Assembly: GCA_963847445.1 (NCBI GenBank)
Contig: CAWJZV010000006.1
Span: 1 to 64,000, forward strand
Origin: an uncultured delta proteobacterium
Lineage (GTDB): Bacteria > Desulfobacterota > Binatia > UBA9968
Direction: 5' to 3'
Length of the DNA: 64,000 nt
The position numbers were made by a program, and so were the translations under genes. The notes below the pieces were generated by a model that searched no databases, was not told the DNA's origin, and was given only the letters and a program-made list of their open reading frames with translations. Each line of letters starts with the position of its first letter. The first letter of the stretch is position 1. Shown one piece after another: positions 21,060 to 48,816 of this stretch.

Positions 21060-22190
21060 ATGAAAACTAATTTACTTCCCCTGGTTTTTTTACTCTGCGC
21101 GGTTCCGCCTGCCGCCGGTCAGGCGCCGAGTTCGCCGCAACCGAAGCCGATCGAAGGCGCGTTGCGGGCGACCACCGTCGCCAAAGGGTTGGAACATCCC
21201 TGGGCCCTCGAAATTCTCCCCGACGGGCGCATGCTGGTCAGCGAGCGGCCGGGACGCTTGCGCGTCATCGATCGTAACGGGCGCGTCGCCGAGCCGTTGG
21301 CCGGCGTGCCCACAGTAGTCGCGCGCCGGCAGGGCGGGCTGCTCGATATCGCGCGATCGCCTGGCTTTGCCCAGGACCGGCTGATTTATTTTTCCTTCGC
21401 GGAAGAGGGCGAGGGCGGCACCGGCACGGCGGTGGCGCGCGCTGTTTTGGCCGAGCGAGCGCTGGAAAAAGTCCAGGTGATCTGGCGCCAGACGCCTAAA
21501 GTCAAGAGTGATAATCATTTCGGCTCGCGACTGGTGTTTGGCCGCGACGGCAATCTATTCGTTACCTTGGGCGATCGCTTCGCGTACCGTGATCAGGCGC
21601 AGAATCTGGCGACCACGTTGGGCAAGATAGTCAGAATTCAACCGGATGGCGGCATTCCGAAAGATAATCCGTTTGTCGGGCGCGAAGGCGCGCGGCCGGA
21701 GATCTGGTCCTATGGCCATCGTAACGTGCAAGCGGCGACGCTCCACCCGGAGACCGGACAACTGTGGACGGTCGAGCATGGCGCGCGCGGCGGCGACGAG
21801 CTCAATCAACCGCAAGCCGGAAAAAATTACGGCTGGCCGGTGATTACCTATGGCGTCGATTACTCCGGGGCAAAGATCGGCGAAGGCACGAGCAAGGCGG
21901 GCATGGAGCAACCGGTTTATTATTGGGACCCGGTGATCGCGCCGTCGGGGGCATTGCTTTATACCGGCAACCTCTTCCCGCAATGGAAGGGCAATCTGTT
22001 GATCGGTTCGTTGCAGCCGGGCCAGTTGGTGCGGCTGGAAATGACCGCCGGGCGCGTCAGCAACGAGTATCGTTACGGCGGCGAGCTGGGCGCGCGCATC
22101 CGCGACGTGCAGCAAGCGCCGGACGGAGCGATTTACCTCATCACGGACGAGAACAACGGCAGAATTCTGCGCGTCGAACCGGCGAAGTAA
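21060..22190 (+). CDS. PQQ-dependent sugar dehydrogenase (YliI/Asd family), exported
   Basis: GLEHPW, QGGLLD, HFGSRL, YGHRNVQ, EHGARGGDELN, NYGWP, RIRDV; signal peptide. Confidence 0.95.
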   Translation: MKTNLLPLVFLLCAVPPAAGQAPSSPQPKPIEGALRATTVAKGLEHPWALEILPDGRMLVSERPGRLRVIDRNGRVAEPLAGVPTVVARRQGGLLDIARSPGFAQDRLIYFSFAEEGEGGTGTAVARAVLAERALEKVQVIWRQTPKVKSDNHFGSRLVFGRDGNLFVTLGDRFAYRDQAQNLATTLGKIVRIQPDGGIPKDNPFVGREGARPEIWSYGHRNVQAATLHPETGQLWTVEHGARGGDELNQPQAGKNYGWPVITYGVDYSGAKIGEGTSKAGMEQPVYYWDPVIAPSGALLYTGNLFPQWKGNLLIGSLQPGQLVRLEMTAGRVSNEYRYGGELGARIRDVQQAPDGAIYLITDENNGRILRVEPAK

Positions 22191-22203
22191 CAAAAGAAAA
22201 GCC

Positions 22204-22249
22204 CGTTCAAATCGTTCAAACCGTTCAAGCAGTTCAAGTCGTTGTCGGA
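22204..22249 (+). repeat. GTTCAA 9-nt-period array, copy 1 (left arm only)
   Basis: GTTCAA at 22205, 22214, 22223, 22232, then CGTTGTCGGA. Confidence 0.9.
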
Positions 22250-22336
22250 AGAAGAATCGGAACTGGAGAATGAACCGCGAGCCTGCAACGTAACGCGCCG
22301 AAGCTAATGGTTACGATCGGCGCAATCTCTGAAATC

Positions 22337-22364
22337 CGTCATTCCCGTGAAAACGGGAATCCAG
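22337..22364. repeat. REP-like palindrome (CGTCATTCCCG type)
   Basis: CGTCATTCCCGTGAAAACGGGAATCCAG hairpin. Confidence 0.75.
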
Positions 22365-22492
22365 GTTCGGTTGGGGTGGGGTGACCCGCATGCGGAATTC
22401 ATTTTGCGGCAATTCGCCAAATCGTTTTTGCCAAGTCTACGATCCGCGTCGCCGGCGCACATTTCGCAATCACGCGATTGCCAGCCACCCCA

Positions 22493-22515
22493 GGGCGTAT
22501 GCAATACGCCCCTAC
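22493..22515. repeat. GTAG-family REP palindrome
   Basis: GGGCGTATGCAATACGCCCCTAC; reverse complement begins GTAGGGGCG. Confidence 0.8.
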
Positions 22516-22556
22516 GCAGAAAACCGAACTTTGCGTTGTTATCCGTGATCATTTGC

Positions 22557-23542
22557 ATGGCTATCCGGGGTTTTGCGATCGCTGCTTTCGCGCTGATCAG
22601 TTCGAGCTGCAGCGGACCGCAGTCCGCGCTCGATCCCGCCGGTCATGGCGCCCAGTGGATCGCCGATATGTTCTGGTGGATGACCGGTTCGGCGGCGGTA
22701 ATCTGGGTCGCGGTTATCGTCTCTGGCGATCTGGGCGGCGCGCAGCGCGCCGGAAAAGCAAAACCGGCGGCGCACCAACCTGATGATCATCGGCGGCGGC
22801 GCAGTGGTGCCGACGCTGGCGTTGGCGCTGCTGTTGCTTTACGGGCTGGCGCCGCTACCGGCGTTGCTCGCGCCCGCGCCCCACGGCAGCCTGCTAATCG
22901 AAGTCTCCGGCGAGCAATGGTGGTGGCGCGTGCGTTACCGGCCGCCCGGCGCCGCCGTTGTGAGCGTCGCCAACGAAATCCGTCTTCCGGTCGGCGCGCC
23001 GGTGCAGTTTCATCTAGAAAGTCCCGATGTCGTCCATTCTTTTTGGATACCGCCGTTGGGCGGCAAGATCGACATGATTCCCGGCCGAGTCACGCGCCTG
23101 GTTCTGACGCCCACGCGCAGCGGAACCTTTCGCGGCGCTTGTGCCGAGTACTGCGGCACGTCCCACGCGCTGATGGCGTTTCCAGTCGTGATCATGGAAC
23201 CCGCGGACTTTGCCCGCTGGCTGACGGCGCAGGCGGCGCCCGCGCAGCCGCCCACGACTGCGCTGGCTGCGCGCGGATTGGCGGCGTTTTTGGAAAGCGG
23301 CTGCGGCGCTTGCCACAGCATCCGTGGCACCTCCGCCGCGCGGCGTCATCGGCCCTGATCTTACCCACGTCGGCAGCCGGTTGAGTCTCGGCGCAGGAAT
23401 TTTGCCGAACACGCCGGAGGCGTTCGTGCGCTGGCTTAAGCATGCGGATAAGTTAAAACCCGGAGTGCACATGCCGGGTTTTGGCATGCTGGCTGAATCC
23501 GAGTTGCAGGCAGTGGCGGCGTATCTGGACGGCTTAGAATGA
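22557..23542 (+). CDS. coxB: cytochrome c oxidase subunit II with fused cytochrome c (caa3 type; two frameshifts)
   Basis: SALDPAG, QWWW, DVVHSFW, CAEYCGTSHALM CuA site, CGACH, GPDLTH, PGVHMP. Confidence 0.92.
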
Positions 23543-23728
23543 ACACGTTCAAATCGTTCAAGCCGTTCAAGCGCTGCGCTCCGTTCAAGCCGTTGTCGGA
23601 GGTTGTAATAGTTAAAACATTTTGCCAACTCGTTCTTCGTCCCGTTCTTCCGCGCCTTGAACAGAGCGAAGCGGTTGAACGAAGCGTTGGCGATTGAACG
23701 GAGCAACGCGATTGAACGGCTTGAACGT
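23539..23728. repeat. GTTCAA/TTGAAC inverted-array element, copy 2, between coxB and coxA
   Basis: GTTCAA at 23547, 23556, 23565, 23583; TTGAAC at 23657, 23675, 23694, 23712, 23721. Confidence 0.92.
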
Positions 23729-23737
23729 ATTGCAGTC

Positions 23738-26274
23738 ATGAAGAGACCTGATCCCCAACCGTTAGCCGAACCATTGCCCGTCGAACAGCGGCGGGCGCAA
23801 GCCGAGCGACTGATGCGTACCTGGGAGACGCCTGCCGGGTGGCGCTATTGGTCTTCGGTCAACAATATGGATGTCGGTTTGTGGTACACCGGGCTGACGT
23901 TTATCTTCCTGCTCTTCGGCGGCGGCCTGGCGCTTTTGATGCGTCTGCAACTGGCCGTGCCCGATAACGATTTTCTTTCCGCCGAATTTTACAACCAAGC
24001 ATTCACCGTGCATGGCTCGGTGATGATGTTCTTGTTCGCGATTCCGATCTTTGAAGCGATCGCGGTATTATTTTTGCCGCAAATGCTCGGCGCGCGCGAC
24101 TTGCCGTTTCCGCGTCTTTCGGCATTTGGCTTTTGGTGTTTTCTTCTCGGCGGCTTGTTCCTTTGCGGGTCGATCTTCTTCGATGCGGCGCCGCGCGGCG
24201 GCTGGTTCATGTATCCGCCGCTCACTTCCAAGTATCAGCCCGACATCGGCGCGGATATTTGGCTTTTGGGATTTTCATTCATCGAGATCGCCGCCATCGC
24301 CGCCGCCGTCGAGATGATCGTCGGCACGCTCAAGACCAGACCGCCGGGAATGCGGCTTAATTTAATGCCGCTCTACGTTTGGTATGTGCTGGTGGCCGCG
24401 GTGATGATCGTCTTCGCGTTTCCGCCGTTGATCGCCGGCAGCATGCTGCTCGAGCTTGAACGGGCCTTTGACTGGCCGTTCTTCAATCCCGCAGCGCGGC
24501 GGCGACCCGCTGCTGTGGCAGCATTTGTTCTGGCTCTTCGGCCATCCCGAAGTCTACATCATATTTTTGCCCTCGGTGGCGCTGATCGCGATGATCGTGC
24601 CGACCTTCGCGCAGCGCCCGATAGTCGGCTACAGCTGGATCGTGCTGGCTGCGGTGGGCACCGGGTTTCTGAGTTTCGGCCTGTGGGTGCATCACATGTT
24701 TACCACCGGGCTGCCGGGCATCACTCTCGGAATATTTGCCGCCGCCTCGCAGGCGGTGGCGCTGCCCACCGGCGTGCAGATCTTCTGCTTCATCGCTACC
24801 CTTGCCGCCGGGCGAGTGGTGCCGTCGGTGCCGATGCTCTGGGCCTTCGGCAGCCTGGTGATTTTCGTGCTCGGCGGCTTGACCGGCGTGATGGTGGCGG
24901 TGGCGCCTTTCGATTTTCAGGCCCACGACACGTTTTTCGTCGTCGCGCATTTACATTACGTCTTGATCGGCGGCGCGCTGTTTCCGATCTTTGCCGGTTG
25001 CTATTATTTTTACCCGTTGATCGGCGGCAAGCTGCTCTCAGAAAAAATCGGCAAGGTCGCTTTTTGGCTGGCATTTACCGGCTTCAATATTACGTTTCTG
25101 CCGATGCATGTGACCGGCCTGCGCGGCATGCCGCGGCGGGTTTTTACTTACCCTGCGGGAATGGGTTTCGATGGACTGAATCTGGTCTCTACCATCGGCG
25201 CGTTTATCCTCGCCGCCGGCGTCGCGCTGATCTTCTGGGATCTATTCCGGCCAAAGCGCCATCAGCCCTATGCGGAGCGCAATCCGTGGCGCGCCGGAAC
25301 CATCGAGTGGACTCAGGAAATGCCAGCCCATCCCTGGGGCATTCGCTCGATTCCCGAAATCGACAGCCGATATCCTTTGTGGGACCAGGCGAATTTCATT
25401 CGCGACATCGACGAGGGCAGATTTTATTTGCCGGATGCGCAGGAAGGCCGGCGCGAAACGATCATCACCTCGGTGCTCGATGCCGAGCCGCAACAATGCG
25501 CGCGCCTGCCGGGGTCCAGTTTCATCACGCTGTGGGCGGCGCTTGGCACCGGCGGTTTTTTTATTTTCGGCACTTATCATTGGTGGACCGCGGCGCTGAT
25601 CAGTCTGATGGCCGGGCTGGTGGTGATTATCTTTTGGCTCTGGACCGGCACCGGGCAAATTCCCGAGAAAGAAAGCAAAGACGTCGGTCTCGGATTGACC
25701 TTGCCGCTATATCTCTCCGGGTCGGGACTCGGTGGGCTGGTGGGCGATGTTCATCACCATGCTGGCGCTGTTCACGGCATTCATCTGTCTGGTCTTCGGC
25801 TATTTCTTCTATTGGACGGCGCGCGACGACTTTCCTCCCGACCCGATCCCCGGGCCAGGGACTTTCTGGCCGGTGGTCGCAGCGGCGGCGCTGCTCGGCT
25901 CCTGGGCGTTAACGCTTTTGAGCGTGCGCTGGAATCGCCTCGACAACGTCCCGGCCTTCTATCTCGGCCTCGCTTTCGCCATGCTTTGCAGCGCGGCAGG
26001 CGCTGCGGCGCTGCTCGCGGGTCCGTGGCGCACCGGCCTTGACCCGGCGAGCCATGTCTATGGTGCAACGGTTTGGATCCTGGTGATCTGGGCCGCGGTG
26101 CAGGCGCTGCTCGGCATCATCATGCAGCTTTACTGCCTGGCGCGCCGCCTCGCCGGACGCATGACCTCGCGCTACGACATGGACATTTACAACGTCGCGC
26201 TGTACTGGCACTTCACCGCGCTGACGGCGGCGATTACGGTGGCGGTGATTGCCGGGTTTCCGCTACTTTTATGA
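23738..26274 (+). CDS. coxA: cytochrome c oxidase subunit I with fused subunit III-like C-terminus (two frameshifts)
   Basis: FTVHGSVMMF, GWFMYPPL, FGHPEVY, WVHHMF, VAHLHYV, GMPRR; C-terminal GWW...LYWHF subunit III-like segment in ORF 25732-26274. Confidence 0.93.
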
Positions 26275-26494
26275 ATAAACACGTTCAAATCGTTCAAAAC
26301 GTTCAAGCGCCTCTTAGGAATGAAGATGTTCAAACCGTTCAACCGCTGCGCTCGGTTCAAAACGTTCAAACCGTTTCGGAAAAGATTTGACGGACCGGGA
26401 GGCAAGTAAGGGTGAATCTTAACTCGCTTTTTTTAGTCGGCTTGAACGGAGCAAAGCGTTTGAACGGAACGAAGTGATTGAACGGCTTGAACGC
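26271..26494. repeat. GTTCAA/TTGAAC inverted-array element, copy 3
   Basis: GTTCAA at 26283, 26292, 26301, 26328, 26337, 26355, 26364; TTGAAC at 26442, 26460, 26478, 26487. Confidence 0.92.
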
Positions 26495-26514
26495 GTTCAT
26501 AAGTGAAAGGGAAA

Positions 26515-26899
26515 ATGGCCCGGGAAAATTTTCCAGAGCACAAAGATAGCATTTTGCTGCTTGACCCTGGGTCCGCTGATCTGGGCGGCGCACTTGCTGT
26601 TGAGCTATGGCACGGCGTCGATCTGGTGCGGCAAGATGGTTGAGACCGGCGGTTCTCTCGGCACCGTTCGCGGCGCGATTGTGGTTTACACTGTGGCCGG
26701 ACTTGCGGCGACTACCTGGGTCGCCTGGAGGGGCTATCGCCGACATCGCACCGGCGGGGCCAGTTTGCCGCATGACGACGATTCACCTGAAGACCGCCAT
26801 CGTTTTATCGGTTATGCAACTTTTTTGCTGGCTTGTTTGAGCGCCGCTGCGATCGTTTACGCCGGCTCGATCACGCTGTTTTTTCGGAGTTGCTATTAA
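26515..26899 (+). CDS. small membrane protein of the oxidase operon (probable frameshift near 26565)
   Basis: PLIWAAHLLLSY...C and three TM segments; operon position; ATG 26515 is in a different frame from ORF 26561. Confidence 0.7.
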
Positions 26900-26901
26900 C
26901 A

Positions 26902-27344
26902 ATGAAGACAGAGCCGTTCAAAACGTTCAACCGCTACGCTCCGTTCAAGCCGTGCCCTCACCCGAACCCTTCCAAAGGGAGCTTATCGTTGCCCATAGGT
27001 TTTGGTTGGAGACGGCGAGTGCTGCAGACTCAGCAAATTCTGGTAAAGCGCTCAAGCGGCGGCGCGTTTTCCAGTCCCCCTCTTTGGAAAAGAGGGGCTA
27101 GGGGAGATTTTTCGCTTCCATGCGGCTCCATCGTCGTAAGCGTCATTGCTAACGATAGAACCTCCCCTCACCGCAGCCAAATCCCCCTGAATCCCCCTTT
27201 TCCAAAGGGGGAAGGGGTCACTATGAGGCCTCTGCTTCTGTCCAGCCAATGAGATGTGGCGCGTGTTGAGCAAAGAGAGCGGGAACTAGGAACGAAGCGA
27301 AGCGGTTGAACTGAGCGCAGCGCGGTTGAACGAAACGAAGTGAA
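26902..27344. repeat. GTTCAA/TTGAAC inverted-array element, copy 4, with nested REPs
   Basis: GTTCAA at 26916, 26925, 26943; TTGAAC at 27306, 27326; interior holds CCCTCACCC-type and CCCCCTTT-type palindromes. Confidence 0.85.
27075..27212. repeat. inverted pair of CCCCCTTT..AAAGGGGG REP-like units
   Basis: TCCCCCTCTTTGGAAAAGAGGGGCTAGGGGAGATTT (27075-27110) versus AAATCCCCCTGAATCCCCCTTTTCCAAAGGGGGA (27179-27212). Confidence 0.85.
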
Positions 27345-27996
27345 ATGACCCGGCCAATTATTTTCATCATCGCCGTGCTCACGCTTGCGGCTCTGTGGTT
27401 GACGCCTTGGGCTTCATTGGGCATGGCGCCGTTTAGCGCGCATATGGTCGTGCATATGGGGATCGTCGCGGTGGCGGCGCCGCTGTTGGCGCTTGGGGTT
27501 GCCGGCAGCGCTGCTCGATCCAGTAGCGCGCTTGCCGGCGCTGTTTCCGCCGATTCCGGTGTCGCTGGTGGAATTTATCGTCGTGTGGGCTTGGCACACG
27601 CCGGCGCTGCATCACGCCGCGCGCCAACCAGGTTTCGCGTCGTTTGCCGAGCAGGGCATGTTTTTTCTCGCCGGGCTCTGGCTCTGGCTGGCGGTTTTCG
27701 GCGGCACTGGCAACGAGCGCCGCGGCCGGGCTGGCAGCGGCGTGCTTGCGCTCCTGCTGACTTCCATGCACATGACCCTGCTTGGCGCGCTCTTGGCTCT
27801 GGCGCCGCGGCCGCTATTCGCCCATGACACGGCTGATGCGACCCATGCTCTAGATTCCCTAGCTGCGCTCGCCGATCAGCAGCTAGGCGGCGCGATCATG
27901 CTGCTGGTCGGTGGCGTTGCCTATCTCGCCGGCGGTCTGTGGCTGACTGCTGGATTATTGCGCAGGGTGGAGTATCGGCAGAGGGCAAGGACATGA
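27345..27996 (+). CDS. cytochrome c oxidase assembly protein (Caa3_CtaG family; one frameshift)
   Basis: FSAHMVVHM..VAVAAPLL, WAWHTPALH, HMTLLG, DQQLGGAIM. Confidence 0.88.
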
Positions 27997-39331: not shown

Positions 39332-45661
<6,330 letters not shown>

Positions 45662-46825: not shown

Positions 46826-48816
46826 GCAGCGCCAACATTCTAGTGGTCGAAGATGAAGCGATCGTCGCGCTTGATCTTAGCCAACGCTTGACCGGCCTGG
46901 GTTACCGAGTCGTCGACACCGTCGCCGAAGGGGAAAAGGTCGTCGCCGCGGTGCTTGAGCACAAACCGGACCTGGTGCTGATGGACCTGCGACTGGCCGG
47001 TGCCCTGGACGGTATCGCCGCAGCGCGACAGATCGCGCAAGTGCGCGACGTCCCGATCGTTTTCTTGACCGCCCATTCCGACCCCGAAACCCTTGCCCAG
47101 GCATGCTTAACCGGCCCCTTCGGCTATATTTTGAAGCCCTTCGATGAGCGCGAGCTGCACACCCAGCTTGAAATCGCGCTCTATCGCCATGGCGCCGAAC
47201 GGCGCGTGCGCGAAAGCGAGGCGCGGCTAAGGTCGATCATGAACACGGCGGCCGATTGCATCATGGAAATCGACGATAACGGCACGCTGCTTAACAGCAA
47301 CCCCGCTGCCGCCCATTTATTCGGTTACGCCGCGGCTGAAATGGCCGGCCGCAACGCCTGCGACTTGATGCCGGAGTTTGCCCGCATCATGCAAAAGGAC
47401 GAGGCGCAGTGGTCGCATAAAACCAGCGGGGGAAAAATTTTTGGCGAGGTTCAGGAACTTAGCGCCATCCAAAAAGACGGGGCGGTCATTCCCGTCGAGC
47501 TTACGGTAAGCCGCAAAGACGATGCGCACGAGCGCAGCTATATCACCATCGTTCGCGATCTCAGACGGCGCAAGCAACTTGAGAACAAACTCACACAGCT
47601 GGTTGACGATCTGCGTGAGACCGACCGGCGCAAGGATGAATTTTTAGCGACGTTGTCGCACGAACTACGCAATCCCCTGGCGCCGATCCGCAATGCCGTG
47701 ACTATTTTGAAGAGTGTCCAACCGGCCGACGACAAATTTAAATGGTGCTGCGAAATCCTCGATACCCAAGTCGATCAGATGAGCTGCGTGTTGGAAGACC
47801 TGCTCGACGTTAGCCGGATCGCCCGGGGCAGTCTATTGCTGCGCCAAGAATGGCTCGGATTTCGCGAAATCATGAGTCATATCGTTGCAATCGCGCGTGC
47901 CGATGTCGAAGCCGCAGGGCATAAGTTGGTCGTTGACCTGCCCGAAAACGACGTCAGTCTGTTTGCCGATCGTGCCCGGCTGACGCAAATCTTCTCCAAC
48001 CTTTTAAACAATGCCGCGAAATATACCGAGGGCAACGGCGAGGTTCGGCTCTCGGCAAAATATGACAACGGCGCAATCGTCGTGCAAATCGAAGATACCG
48101 GCATCGGCATCTCGGCTGAACTATTGCCCCATGTGTTCAAAATGTTCAAGCAAGCCGACAGCAGTTTGGAACGCGGCCGGGGCGGCCTCGGCATCGGTCT
48201 CGCTTTGGTGAAAAGCCTGGTCGCGCTACACGGTGGCACGGTTGAGGCTAATAGCGCCGGCCTTGGCCAAGGTAGTGTGTTTACGGTGCGGTTGCCGGTG
48301 GCGCCGGTCAGCCCGGTTGCAGTTGAGATGCCCACAACCATCGTCGAGGCGGACGGCCGGCCAGCGCAGTTGGTTAGACCGATACGGATTCTAATCGTCG
48401 ACGATAATAAATTACAGGCCCAAAGCCTCGGGCTTCTCGTCGAGCTATGGGGCTTTGATGTCCGGCTCGCTTTTGACGGGCCGCAAGCGCTTGCGGCTTT
48501 AGCCAACTACTCGGCTGATGTCGCGCTTATCGATATCGGCCTGCCGGGTCTCAGCGGTTTTGAAGTCGCGCGGCAGATCCGCGCACAGCCGCAATGGCGC
48601 CACATGACCCTGATTGCCCAGACCGGTTGGGGCCGCGACAGCGATCGCGGTAATTCGGGACAAGCGGGGTTTGATCATCATTTCACCAAGCCGCTCAACC
48701 ACGAGGCTTTGGAAAAAGTGCTCAATCAGACCGCGGCAAAAAAGTTTGGCACAGCTAGCGTTTTCGACAAATTTCAACGCCTTGGTCGAACCAGTCCAAC
48801 GAAACCTAGCGATTGA
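46822..48816 (+). CDS. REC-PAS-histidine kinase-REC hybrid
   Basis: ILVVEDE, PFGYILKPF, PAS, FLATLSHELRNPL, GGLGIGLALV, ILIVDDN; ATGA overlap with upstream gene. Confidence 0.93.
   Translation: MSSANILVVEDEAIVALDLSQRLTGLGYRVVDTVAEGEKVVAAVLEHKPDLVLMDLRLAGALDGIAAARQIAQVRDVPIVFLTAHSDPETLAQACLTGPFGYILKPFDERELHTQLEIALYRHGAERRVRESEARLRSIMNTAADCIMEIDDNGTLLNSNPAAAHLFGYAAAEMAGRNACDLMPEFARIMQKDEAQWSHKTSGGKIFGEVQELSAIQKDGAVIPVELTVSRKDDAHERSYITIVRDLRRRKQLENKLTQLVDDLRETDRRKDEFLATLSHELRNPLAPIRNAVTILKSVQPADDKFKWCCEILDTQVDQMSCVLEDLLDVSRIARGSLLLRQEWLGFREIMSHIVAIARADVEAAGHKLVVDLPENDVSLFADRARLTQIFSNLLNNAAKYTEGNGEVRLSAKYDNGAIVVQIEDTGIGISAELLPHVFKMFKQADSSLERGRGGLGIGLALVKSLVALHGGTVEANSAGLGQGSVFTVRLPVAPVSPVAVEMPTTIVEADGRPAQLVRPIRILIVDDNKLQAQSLGLLVELWGFDVRLAFDGPQALAALANYSADVALIDIGLPGLSGFEVARQIRAQPQWRHMTLIAQTGWGRDSDRGNSGQAGFDHHFTKPLNHEALEKVLNQTAAKKFGTASVFDKFQRLGRTSPTKPSD

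Follow-up and report, generated by a model that had tools for sequence, protein, structure and literature searches.

We analysed a stretch of 64,000 nucleotides (nt) from an uncultured soil delta proteobacterium (GenBank contig CAWJZV010000006.1, positions 1 to 64,000; hereafter the window, to whose positions coordinates refer unless a contig is given), in which several gene junctions of a cytochrome c oxidase locus contain arrays of the hexamer GTTCAA and of its reverse complement TTGAAC with a 9-nt period. These arrays are very probably gene-less derivatives of a small gene cassette, in which the same arms enclose a four-helix-bundle gene and which would be laid out as (GTTCAA-N3)n, ribosome-binding site, PF05635/TIGR02436 gene and (N3-TTGAAC)n. 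The arrays have the same arms, linker and tail as the cassette, and gene-bearing, gene-less and empty states occur at one orthologous site. In addition, the arms are strongly biased to positions just past stop codons, the protein is conserved, and gene-less composites lie at several unrelated sites. The best overall explanation, to which we give a probability of about 0.6, adds to this descent from the cassette a model in which operon transcripts carry the cassette as a selfish passenger. Below, G000 is the source genome (7.19 Mb), other G numbers are its relatives and L numbers are extracted loci.

The genes of the locus stand in the order GSDH (glucose/sorbosone dehydrogenase) family dehydrogenase, cox2, cox1, a small open reading frame (ORF), ctaG and cytochrome c genes, and the junctions between them are numbered 1 to 5. 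The initial annotation, made from the letters of the window, had counted about 29 hexamers with left arms in four junctions and right arms in three of these. Our exact recount agrees: seven arms, with 29 hexamers in all, lie between 22205 and 27331 (4 units at junction 1, 4+5 at junction 2, 7+4 at junction 3 and 3+2 at junction 4):

22205 to 22248, forward strand: junction 1 left arm, four GTTCAA units at 9-nt spacing with a CGTTGTCGGA tail, 14 nt 3' of the GSDH stop codon, without a right arm
23547 to 23602, forward strand: junction 2 left arm, four exact units, a CGCTGCGCTCC linker and a TCGGAGG end
23657 to 23726, forward strand: junction 2 right arm, five exact TTGAAC units, ending 11 nt 5' of the cox1 ATG
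26283 to 26369, forward strand: junction 3 left arm, seven units in two blocks, 8 nt past the stop codon
26442 to 26492, forward strand: junction 3 right arm, four units
26916 to 26948, forward strand: junction 4 left arm, three units with linker
27290 to 27331, forward strand: junction 4 right arm, two exact units and degenerate ones
27993 to 27996, forward strand: junction 5, a bare ATGA overlap, without arms in the five compared relatives too

As had been noted, the left arms of junctions 1 and 2 both end in CGTTGTCGGA, and the fifth junction is indeed a bare overlap. The pattern GTTCAA-N3-GTTCAA has 13 matches in the window and none in 100 shuffles; 12 of the 13 lie inside the four junctions and the other, at 48135, falls within an open coding frame. 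One stray hexamer stands inside cox1, at 24456. The interiors between left and right arms had been described as unrelated and of about 60 to 350 nt; the lengths hold (68, 72 and 357 nt for junctions 2, 3 and 4), while the interior of junction 4 proved to be a separate dispersed repeat of about 300 nt. That all arrays lie at junctions of one operon does not extend with certainty to junction 1, whose membership is not demonstrated (its gap of 366 nt contains two other repeat families).

When folded as RNA, junctions 2, 3 and 4 are more stable than shuffled sequences (z -5.16, with 0 of 200 shuffles equally stable; z -3.02, 2 of 200; z -4.15, 0 of 100), and the lone left arm of junction 1 is not (z -1.46, not significant). 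The long imperfect hairpins predicted by the initial annotation are therefore found at junctions 2 to 4 and not at junction 1. The slippable register that it had proposed for them fits the unit numbers, which differ between relatives: the right arm of junction 2 is about 26 nt longer than its counterparts in G003 and G022.

The annotation had also supposed that the same arms might flank a gene elsewhere in the genome, and this is the case. On contig C30 of G000, a four-helix-bundle gene (PF05635, '23S rRNA intervening-sequence protein') lies within each of two left-right pairs, intact behind lexA and frameshifted behind an imuB-like gene ('imuB' and 'imuA' are labels given from context and a weak DNA polymerase IV match). 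The intact protein (P0001, 138 amino acids) matches TIGR02436, PF05635 and the XCC0516 structure 2GSC (E 3.8e-13). The TCGGAGG end of the junction 2 left arm is the Shine-Dalgarno-like tail that gene-bearing cassettes have before the start codon of the four-helix-bundle gene; the window linker or this tail also occurs in the gene-bearing cassettes L012, L021 and L022, in which the tail serves the enclosed gene as ribosome-binding site. In a gene-bearing cassette of 546 nt the arms are paired in the minimum free energy and centroid structures, though the cassette as a whole does not exceed shuffled sequences in stability (z -0.76). Periodic arms, each of its own unit, were recognised by eye at all 11 PF05635 matches of G000.

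We surveyed homologs of the protein at 93 distinct loci, divided into three identity classes; our tests of the cassette cover this genus. At 72% identity or more, 15 of the 16 loci have the 9-nt left arm and 12 have both arms; between 60 and 72%, both 9-nt arms are present at 6 of 29; below 60%, 9-nt arms occur at 2 of 48 and a period of 7 dominates. The 16 closest cassettes lie behind lexA (7) or behind the imuB-like gene (9), which places the cassette in a presumably damage-induced SOS transcript. The protein is under purifying selection, with a median ratio of nonsynonymous to synonymous substitution rates of 0.054 (range 0.022-0.128; 34 unsaturated pairs of 120). In a protein tree of 54 rows, from which duplicates and most rows below 55% identity were excluded and in which clades were compared without a formal test, proteins of the imuB site twice cluster with those of the lexA site (support 100/99 and 100/91), suggesting moves or conversion between the sites, and a GTTCCA variant of the arms marks one clade.

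A metagenome scan returned at least 121 loci, with complete flanks for 80. A partner arm is present at 50 of the 121 listed, at 45 of these no more than 186 nt away, and the five long interiors contain this gene (3), a cupin gene (1) or no clear gene (1). The cupin-like ORF, recognised by eye, lies between a left and a right arm on a metagenome contig (L170:990-1460); it is possibly captured cargo, or the arms belong to two separate junction elements. On viral contigs, none of 121 pattern loci has a partner arm or the gene, and an open frame crosses the match in 95.

The different states of the element can be compared at orthologous junctions. The 3' junction of lexA was compared in 19 genomes: the gene is present in 9, of which 6 have clear 9-nt arms; 9-nt arms without it, some of them eroded, are found in 7 and 7- or 8-nt arms without it in 2, and 1 has nothing. 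Because gene-bearing and gene-less states share this junction, it is direct evidence for an origin of gene-less pairs by deletion from the cassette. No clear coding remnant was found in gene-less interiors, one copy (on C7) matching the stretch just past the stop codon.

Alignment of the cox operon, found in 7 relatives among 40 genomes searched, revealed the presence/absence polymorphism that the annotation had anticipated. Junction 1 has the same left arm at the same place in G003 and G004. At junction 2, four relatives (G003, G004, G022 and G013) have 9-nt arms, G002 has a different hairpin, and G019 (ATGA) and the distant G011 show the bare overlap. At junction 3, G004 and G002 have 9-nt arms, G003 and G013 heptamer arms and G019 a short plain spacer; at junction 4, arms are present in G003 and G004, eroded in G002, replaced by other sequence in G013 and absent from the bare TGATG overlap of G019. 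The bare ATGA and TGATG overlaps of G019 bear out the proposal that such an overlap is the empty ancestral state, and they are not due to absence of the family, since G019 has 419 motif matches elsewhere in its genome. An ATGA stands on both sides of the element at junction 2 and a single ATGA in the empty allele, as a target-site duplication might leave it, but a stop and a start codon are required there regardless. The element is not an assembly artefact, because G003 and G022, which were assembled separately, carry the same junction 2 element with a closely similar interior.

At 13 other junctions of G000, 43 comparisons gave 25 GTTCAA-type and 8 GTTCCA-type elements (one of the latter by eye a different hairpin) and 10 of neither type (eroded, mis-anchored, hairpins of other period and one gene pair); none of the 43 was a bare overlap, at junctions picked as filled in G000. 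At L390, the ortholog of G000:C46 near 482579, G003 has a two-gene insert without arms, resembling a putative small toxin-antitoxin-type pair, and G000 and G004 have the hairpin.

Within the window, the initial annotation had seen the arrays only in the PQQ-DH (pyrroloquinoline quinone-dependent dehydrogenase)/cox operon; they are not special to it, as a scan of the genome places them at about 150 sites. G000 has 391 pattern matches against 4 for a reversed control, and its 224 arrays reduce to 158 sites of the 9-nt family, of which 65 are left only, 51 right only, 37 left-right, 4 right-left and 1 left-left. Counting arms of at least three units gives 190 arms at 145 sites. Every one of 24 genomes of the genus has the motif; 16 genomes from two other families have 0-6 matches. 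The spacers between hexamers are drawn from a narrow set of 3-nt triplets.

The arms are not randomly placed with respect to gene boundaries or orientation. They start within 40 nt past a same-strand stop codon in 92 of 231 cases (41 of 1500 random positions; 9 of 231 with orientation flipped) and end within 45 nt before an ATG in 48 of 231 (150 of 1500 random; 20 of 231 flipped); these counts are lower bounds, as gene calling was crude on a frameshifted assembly and 94 of the 231 arms have no assigned position. Six of the 231 lie in open coding frames: five resemble chance two-unit matches, and one is a true right arm translated within the imuB-like protein (L002:3240-3320, on G000:C30; present also in G014). 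The view of a non-autonomous hairpin element at gene junctions is supported; for its 'operon-junction-targeting' the position stands, while active targeting is not separated from selection against insertions within genes, one arm being in frame within a gene.

Eight sites, spread over 4 contigs, have a gene-less composite in which both 9-nt arms surround another palindrome (8 of the 13 copies of the palindrome). This suggests that gene-less units are copied as such; repeated nesting could look alike. Arm sites show modest clustering: 28 of them have another site within 3 kb, where the null gives 15.0 ± 4.9 and at most 33. Interiors are similar in 12.7% of 110 near pairs and in 0.65% of 17,795 far pairs. 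The hint of local hopping that this gives is weak: three clusters supply all 14 high-scoring near pairs, pairs within the window have low scores, and the linker subtype is unclustered. Eleven solo left arms of G000 end in a Shine-Dalgarno-like word immediately followed by the start codon of a host gene, which would seem to have taken over the ribosome-binding site of the cassette. In G000:C30:577729-596074, seven TTGAAC arrays have an identical 8-9-7 spacing, several of them about 1.1 kb apart; they are probably a tandem gene array with a related arm.

In the model that we consider most likely, the cassette would be a selfish passenger of operon transcripts, its arms pairing into a long, register-tolerant RNA stem that would spare the flanking genes. 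RNase III might cut this stem, a step on which we are evenly divided: it is proposed because ORF-bearing intervening sequences of ribosomal RNA (rRNA) offer an analogy, RNase III excision in vitro and a 28-bp terminal stem having been shown for them in excerpts of PMC4990558, and because G000 has an RNase III gene. Gene-less hairpins would then be copied in trans to new junctions. A part of the four-helix-bundle protein in this spread is proposed tentatively. Being Avd-like, it would probably be a nucleic-acid-binding accessory, with a separate host or co-resident enzyme inserting the DNA; this role is suggested because PF05635 is described, in excerpts of PMC10053308, as homologous to Avd, which is essential for retrohoming. 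Once opened by an insertion, a coupled overlap would be a tolerated landing site, where other hairpin families could nest in the first element or replace it. The junction bias may reflect selection rather than targeting.

Several observations weigh against this model. No partner lies within 520 nt of 118 of the 190 arms, that of junction 1 included, and the outer ends are not conserved, no outer-flank position exceeding 52% of one base among 199 arms, unlike those of a defined mobile unit. No mobilising enzyme is tied to the arms: of 101 cassette loci, 1 has a reverse transcriptase-like match nearby, no such arms flank the Y1 transposase genes of G000 (four PF01797 matches, of which the three above cut-off were inspected), and no integron integrase of G000 scores above cut-off. 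Left arms pair with their own right arms no better than with others (36 pairs, p 0.75), so that selection on the individual gene-less stems is not apparent. The 16 closest cassettes occupy two sites only, so that recent spread of the full cassette is not evident. Nor does arm abundance clearly track the gene, since G004 has 245 motif matches and no homolog at E 1e-35, these genomes being incomplete. Finally, two sequencing runs hold 0.05-0.07 of the sequence words; their contigs represent other strains and repeats, with short-sided joints, and are uninformative on excision or expression.

The strongest competing explanation, although an unlikely one, is that the arms are REP/MITE-like (repetitive extragenic palindrome or miniature inverted-repeat transposable element) substrates of another trans-acting enzyme, such as a Y1/HUH transposase, a GIY-YIG or DUF559 nuclease or an SOS-linked integron integrase, and that the four-helix-bundle gene is their usual passenger. 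The hairpins of GIY-YIG and DUF559 genes do nest in or replace 9-nt elements, and the cupin gene shows that another gene can lie between the arms at one metagenome locus. In addition, 7 of the 16 close cassettes, 4 of the 29 mid-range and 0 of the 48 distant ones have an integron integrase (TIGR02249), or what is left of one, no further than 1.5 kb away; it often stands downstream of the close cassettes and is a lead. However, the arm type tracks the four-helix-bundle clade. For the integron version, attC sites have the cores RYYYAAC ... GTTRRRY, in that order; the arms are unlike these cores and their order is mostly the reverse, GTT first (37 sites against 4), so we rejected attC sites as their identity. 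Moreover, only a remnant of the integrase lies behind the G000 cassette, and the link may reflect shared SOS-operon ancestry. Co-oriented integron integrases do occur within the lexA/imuB SOS region of this genus, at L013:2308-3390 (above the TIGR02249 cut-off) and L012:1982-3076, and in G000 the gene is reduced to a C-terminal remnant.

It is more doubtful still that, as the initial annotation had offered as an alternative, the host keeps the hairpins as sites of mRNA processing or translation control that tune subunit ratios. The strong position bias would fit this, as would the persistence of some hairpin at the 13 compared junctions of relatives, where none was bare, the 11 solo left arms with a Shine-Dalgarno-like word before a host gene, and the joint switch of both arms to GTTCCA/TGGAAC in several orthologous copies. 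Yet G019 does with bare junctions 2 and 4 in the same operon despite its many motif matches, element type, length and interior vary freely at one junction, and gene-less arms show no element-specific covariation. A regulatory role can only be secondary to the cassette origin.

That the arrays are independent simple repeats made by slippage, LexA boxes or an assembly artefact is very improbable: unit number does shift in slippage-like steps, intact cassettes are in an SOS operon and the assembly has many frameshifts, but the inverted pairing, the shared linker and tail, the few spacer triplets, the conserved gene between the same arms and the same elements in other assemblies speak against it. 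The palindrome conserved upstream of lexA is of the form TACTG-N10-CAGTA, not GTTCAA, so the arms were rejected as LexA/SOS boxes; this palindrome (L113-L131) is a candidate SOS box of the genus. A conserved leader peptide across the left arm was also rejected, as ATGs near the window arms open different frames and an ATG is present at only 16 of 92 stop-adjacent arms.

Among known systems, the cassette with its derivatives would resemble two: the intervening sequences of rRNA, though placed in mRNA operons, and, in its multiplication, REP or REPIN (REP doublets forming hairpins). Each known family that we tested has a defining feature that is missing here. In agreement with the initial annotation, the element is neither a clustered regularly interspaced short palindromic repeat (CRISPR) array nor a classical insertion sequence (IS), given its repeat layout, undefined ends and four-helix-bundle parent. 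CRISPR repeats of about 24-48 nt with unique spacers contrast with a 6-nt core and 3-nt spacers from few triplets. A MITE or IS derivative has fixed terminal ends, which are missing here; the window copies are deletion derivatives, but their parent encodes a four-helix-bundle protein and not a transposase. An Rfam search gave two matches, both at chance level. Unlike REP, bacterial interspersed mosaic elements (BIME) and REPIN, the arms have no GTAG/CGTC tag, a single arm is periodic and not palindromic, and the enclosed gene codes for a four-helix bundle and not for the REP-associated tyrosine transposase (RAYT). Like REP and BIME, as described in excerpts of PMC3733652, they are abundant, lineage-restricted, intergenic, stop-adjacent, mosaic, arranged in inverted pairs, occasionally in frame in genes and, as with RAYT, derived from the flanks of a small gene.

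The ORF-bearing intervening sequences of 23S rRNA (S23p/PF05635; Coxiella, Leptospira) share with the cassette, according to excerpts of PMC4990558, terminal inverted repeats forming a long stem round a co-oriented four-helix-bundle gene in a host transcript. Three of the four window copies form such a stem. In contrast to these sequences, the window copies lie between protein genes, the gene-bearing copies follow lexA or the imuB-like gene, the arms are tandem 9-mers, and about 150 mostly gene-less or one-armed copies occur per genome. The four window copies enclose no S23p/PF05635 ORF, whereas two sister copies in G000 do, and purifying selection on the protein is a further contrast that we list. 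Unlike a diversity-generating retroelement, the cassette has no adjacent reverse transcriptase (save at 1 of 101 loci), the single one of G000 being on another contig. In the literature searched, whose coverage left out most subscription journals and supplements, we did not find this cassette class described. The nearest case is that of the TAACTGA heptamer direct repeats of Beggiatoaceae (PMC4679880), which also form more than 100 short oriented tandem arrays of 2-6 units, intergenic and near starts or stops. They differ in their period of 7 and in that hardly any inverted pairs are reported, and the main text of that paper draws no link to a four-helix bundle, with no mention of S23 or 23S; it gives no known exchange mechanism and proposes a translational role.

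The junctions of the window also contain other repeats:

22338 to 22364: unrelated short hairpin (27 nt) in junction 1, identical to the flank just upstream of a GIY-YIG gene at G000:C24:23893
22442 to 22535: second unrelated dispersed repeat of about 95 nt in junction 1, with 10 G000 copies of at least 60 nt, this one counted
26979 to 27283: nested dispersed element of about 300 nt in junction 4, with imperfect inverted ends and 11 G000 copies of at least 150 nt, this one counted

The repeat of about 95 nt ends about 20 nt before the cox2 start, and its copies elsewhere run into a CTTTGCG-periodic tail. The longest other copies of the element of about 300 nt are 71-82% identical to it; its CCCCC/GGGGG hairpin resembles those that flank DUF559 genes, and it is absent from junction 4 of G003 and G004. 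The GIY-YIG and DUF559 genes of G000 have hairpin arms of their own. The host genes are as follows:

21060 to 22190, forward strand: GSDH family gene (PF07995)
22557 to 23542, forward strand: cytochrome c oxidase subunit II, cox2 (PF00116), frameshifted in this assembly
23738 to 26274, forward strand: cytochrome c oxidase subunit I, cox1 (PF00115), with a C-terminal extension, frameshifted here
26515 to 26899, forward strand: small conserved ORF, no family match
27345 to 27996, forward strand: Caa3_CtaG assembly factor, ctaG (PF09678), frameshifted in this assembly

In relatives, cox2, cox1 and ctaG are open or are interrupted at other points, which makes indels of the assembly the probable cause of their frameshifts here; cox1 of G004 is one open frame of 903 amino acids. 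Sequence upstream of cox2 is wholly different from that in G003 and G004, and the cox loci of G013, G019 and G011 showed no GSDH gene in their upstream part. Outside the locus, the window contains an apparently coding 276-nt tandem repeat of 10.7 copies (39887-42844), presumably HAMP-like repeats as judged by eye.

Operon junctions in this genus are thus reworked by several gene-wrapping hairpin families, and such rework can break translational coupling and supply new ribosome-binding sites. PF05635 is a widespread family of solved structure and unknown function that is related to Avd and occurs in rRNA intervening sequences, and the present case joins it, in one lineage, to short-period intergenic repeats of the kind for which the main text of PMC4679880 gives no mechanism. 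A full allelic series is available (gene-bearing, gene-less, replaced and empty), together with testable handles: a defined protein, a candidate 9-nt binding site of which GTTCCA is a natural variant, and a setting that DNA damage would induce. Taken to its furthest, this points to a transposase-free class of mobile element, which we regard as speculative and rather unlikely, in which an SOS-expressed Avd-like protein would recognise its own periodic RNA or single-stranded DNA arms and drive the copying of gene-less hairpins just past stop codons, with competing arm types replacing one another. If true, this would give PF05635 a function and account for one class of short-period intergenic repeats.

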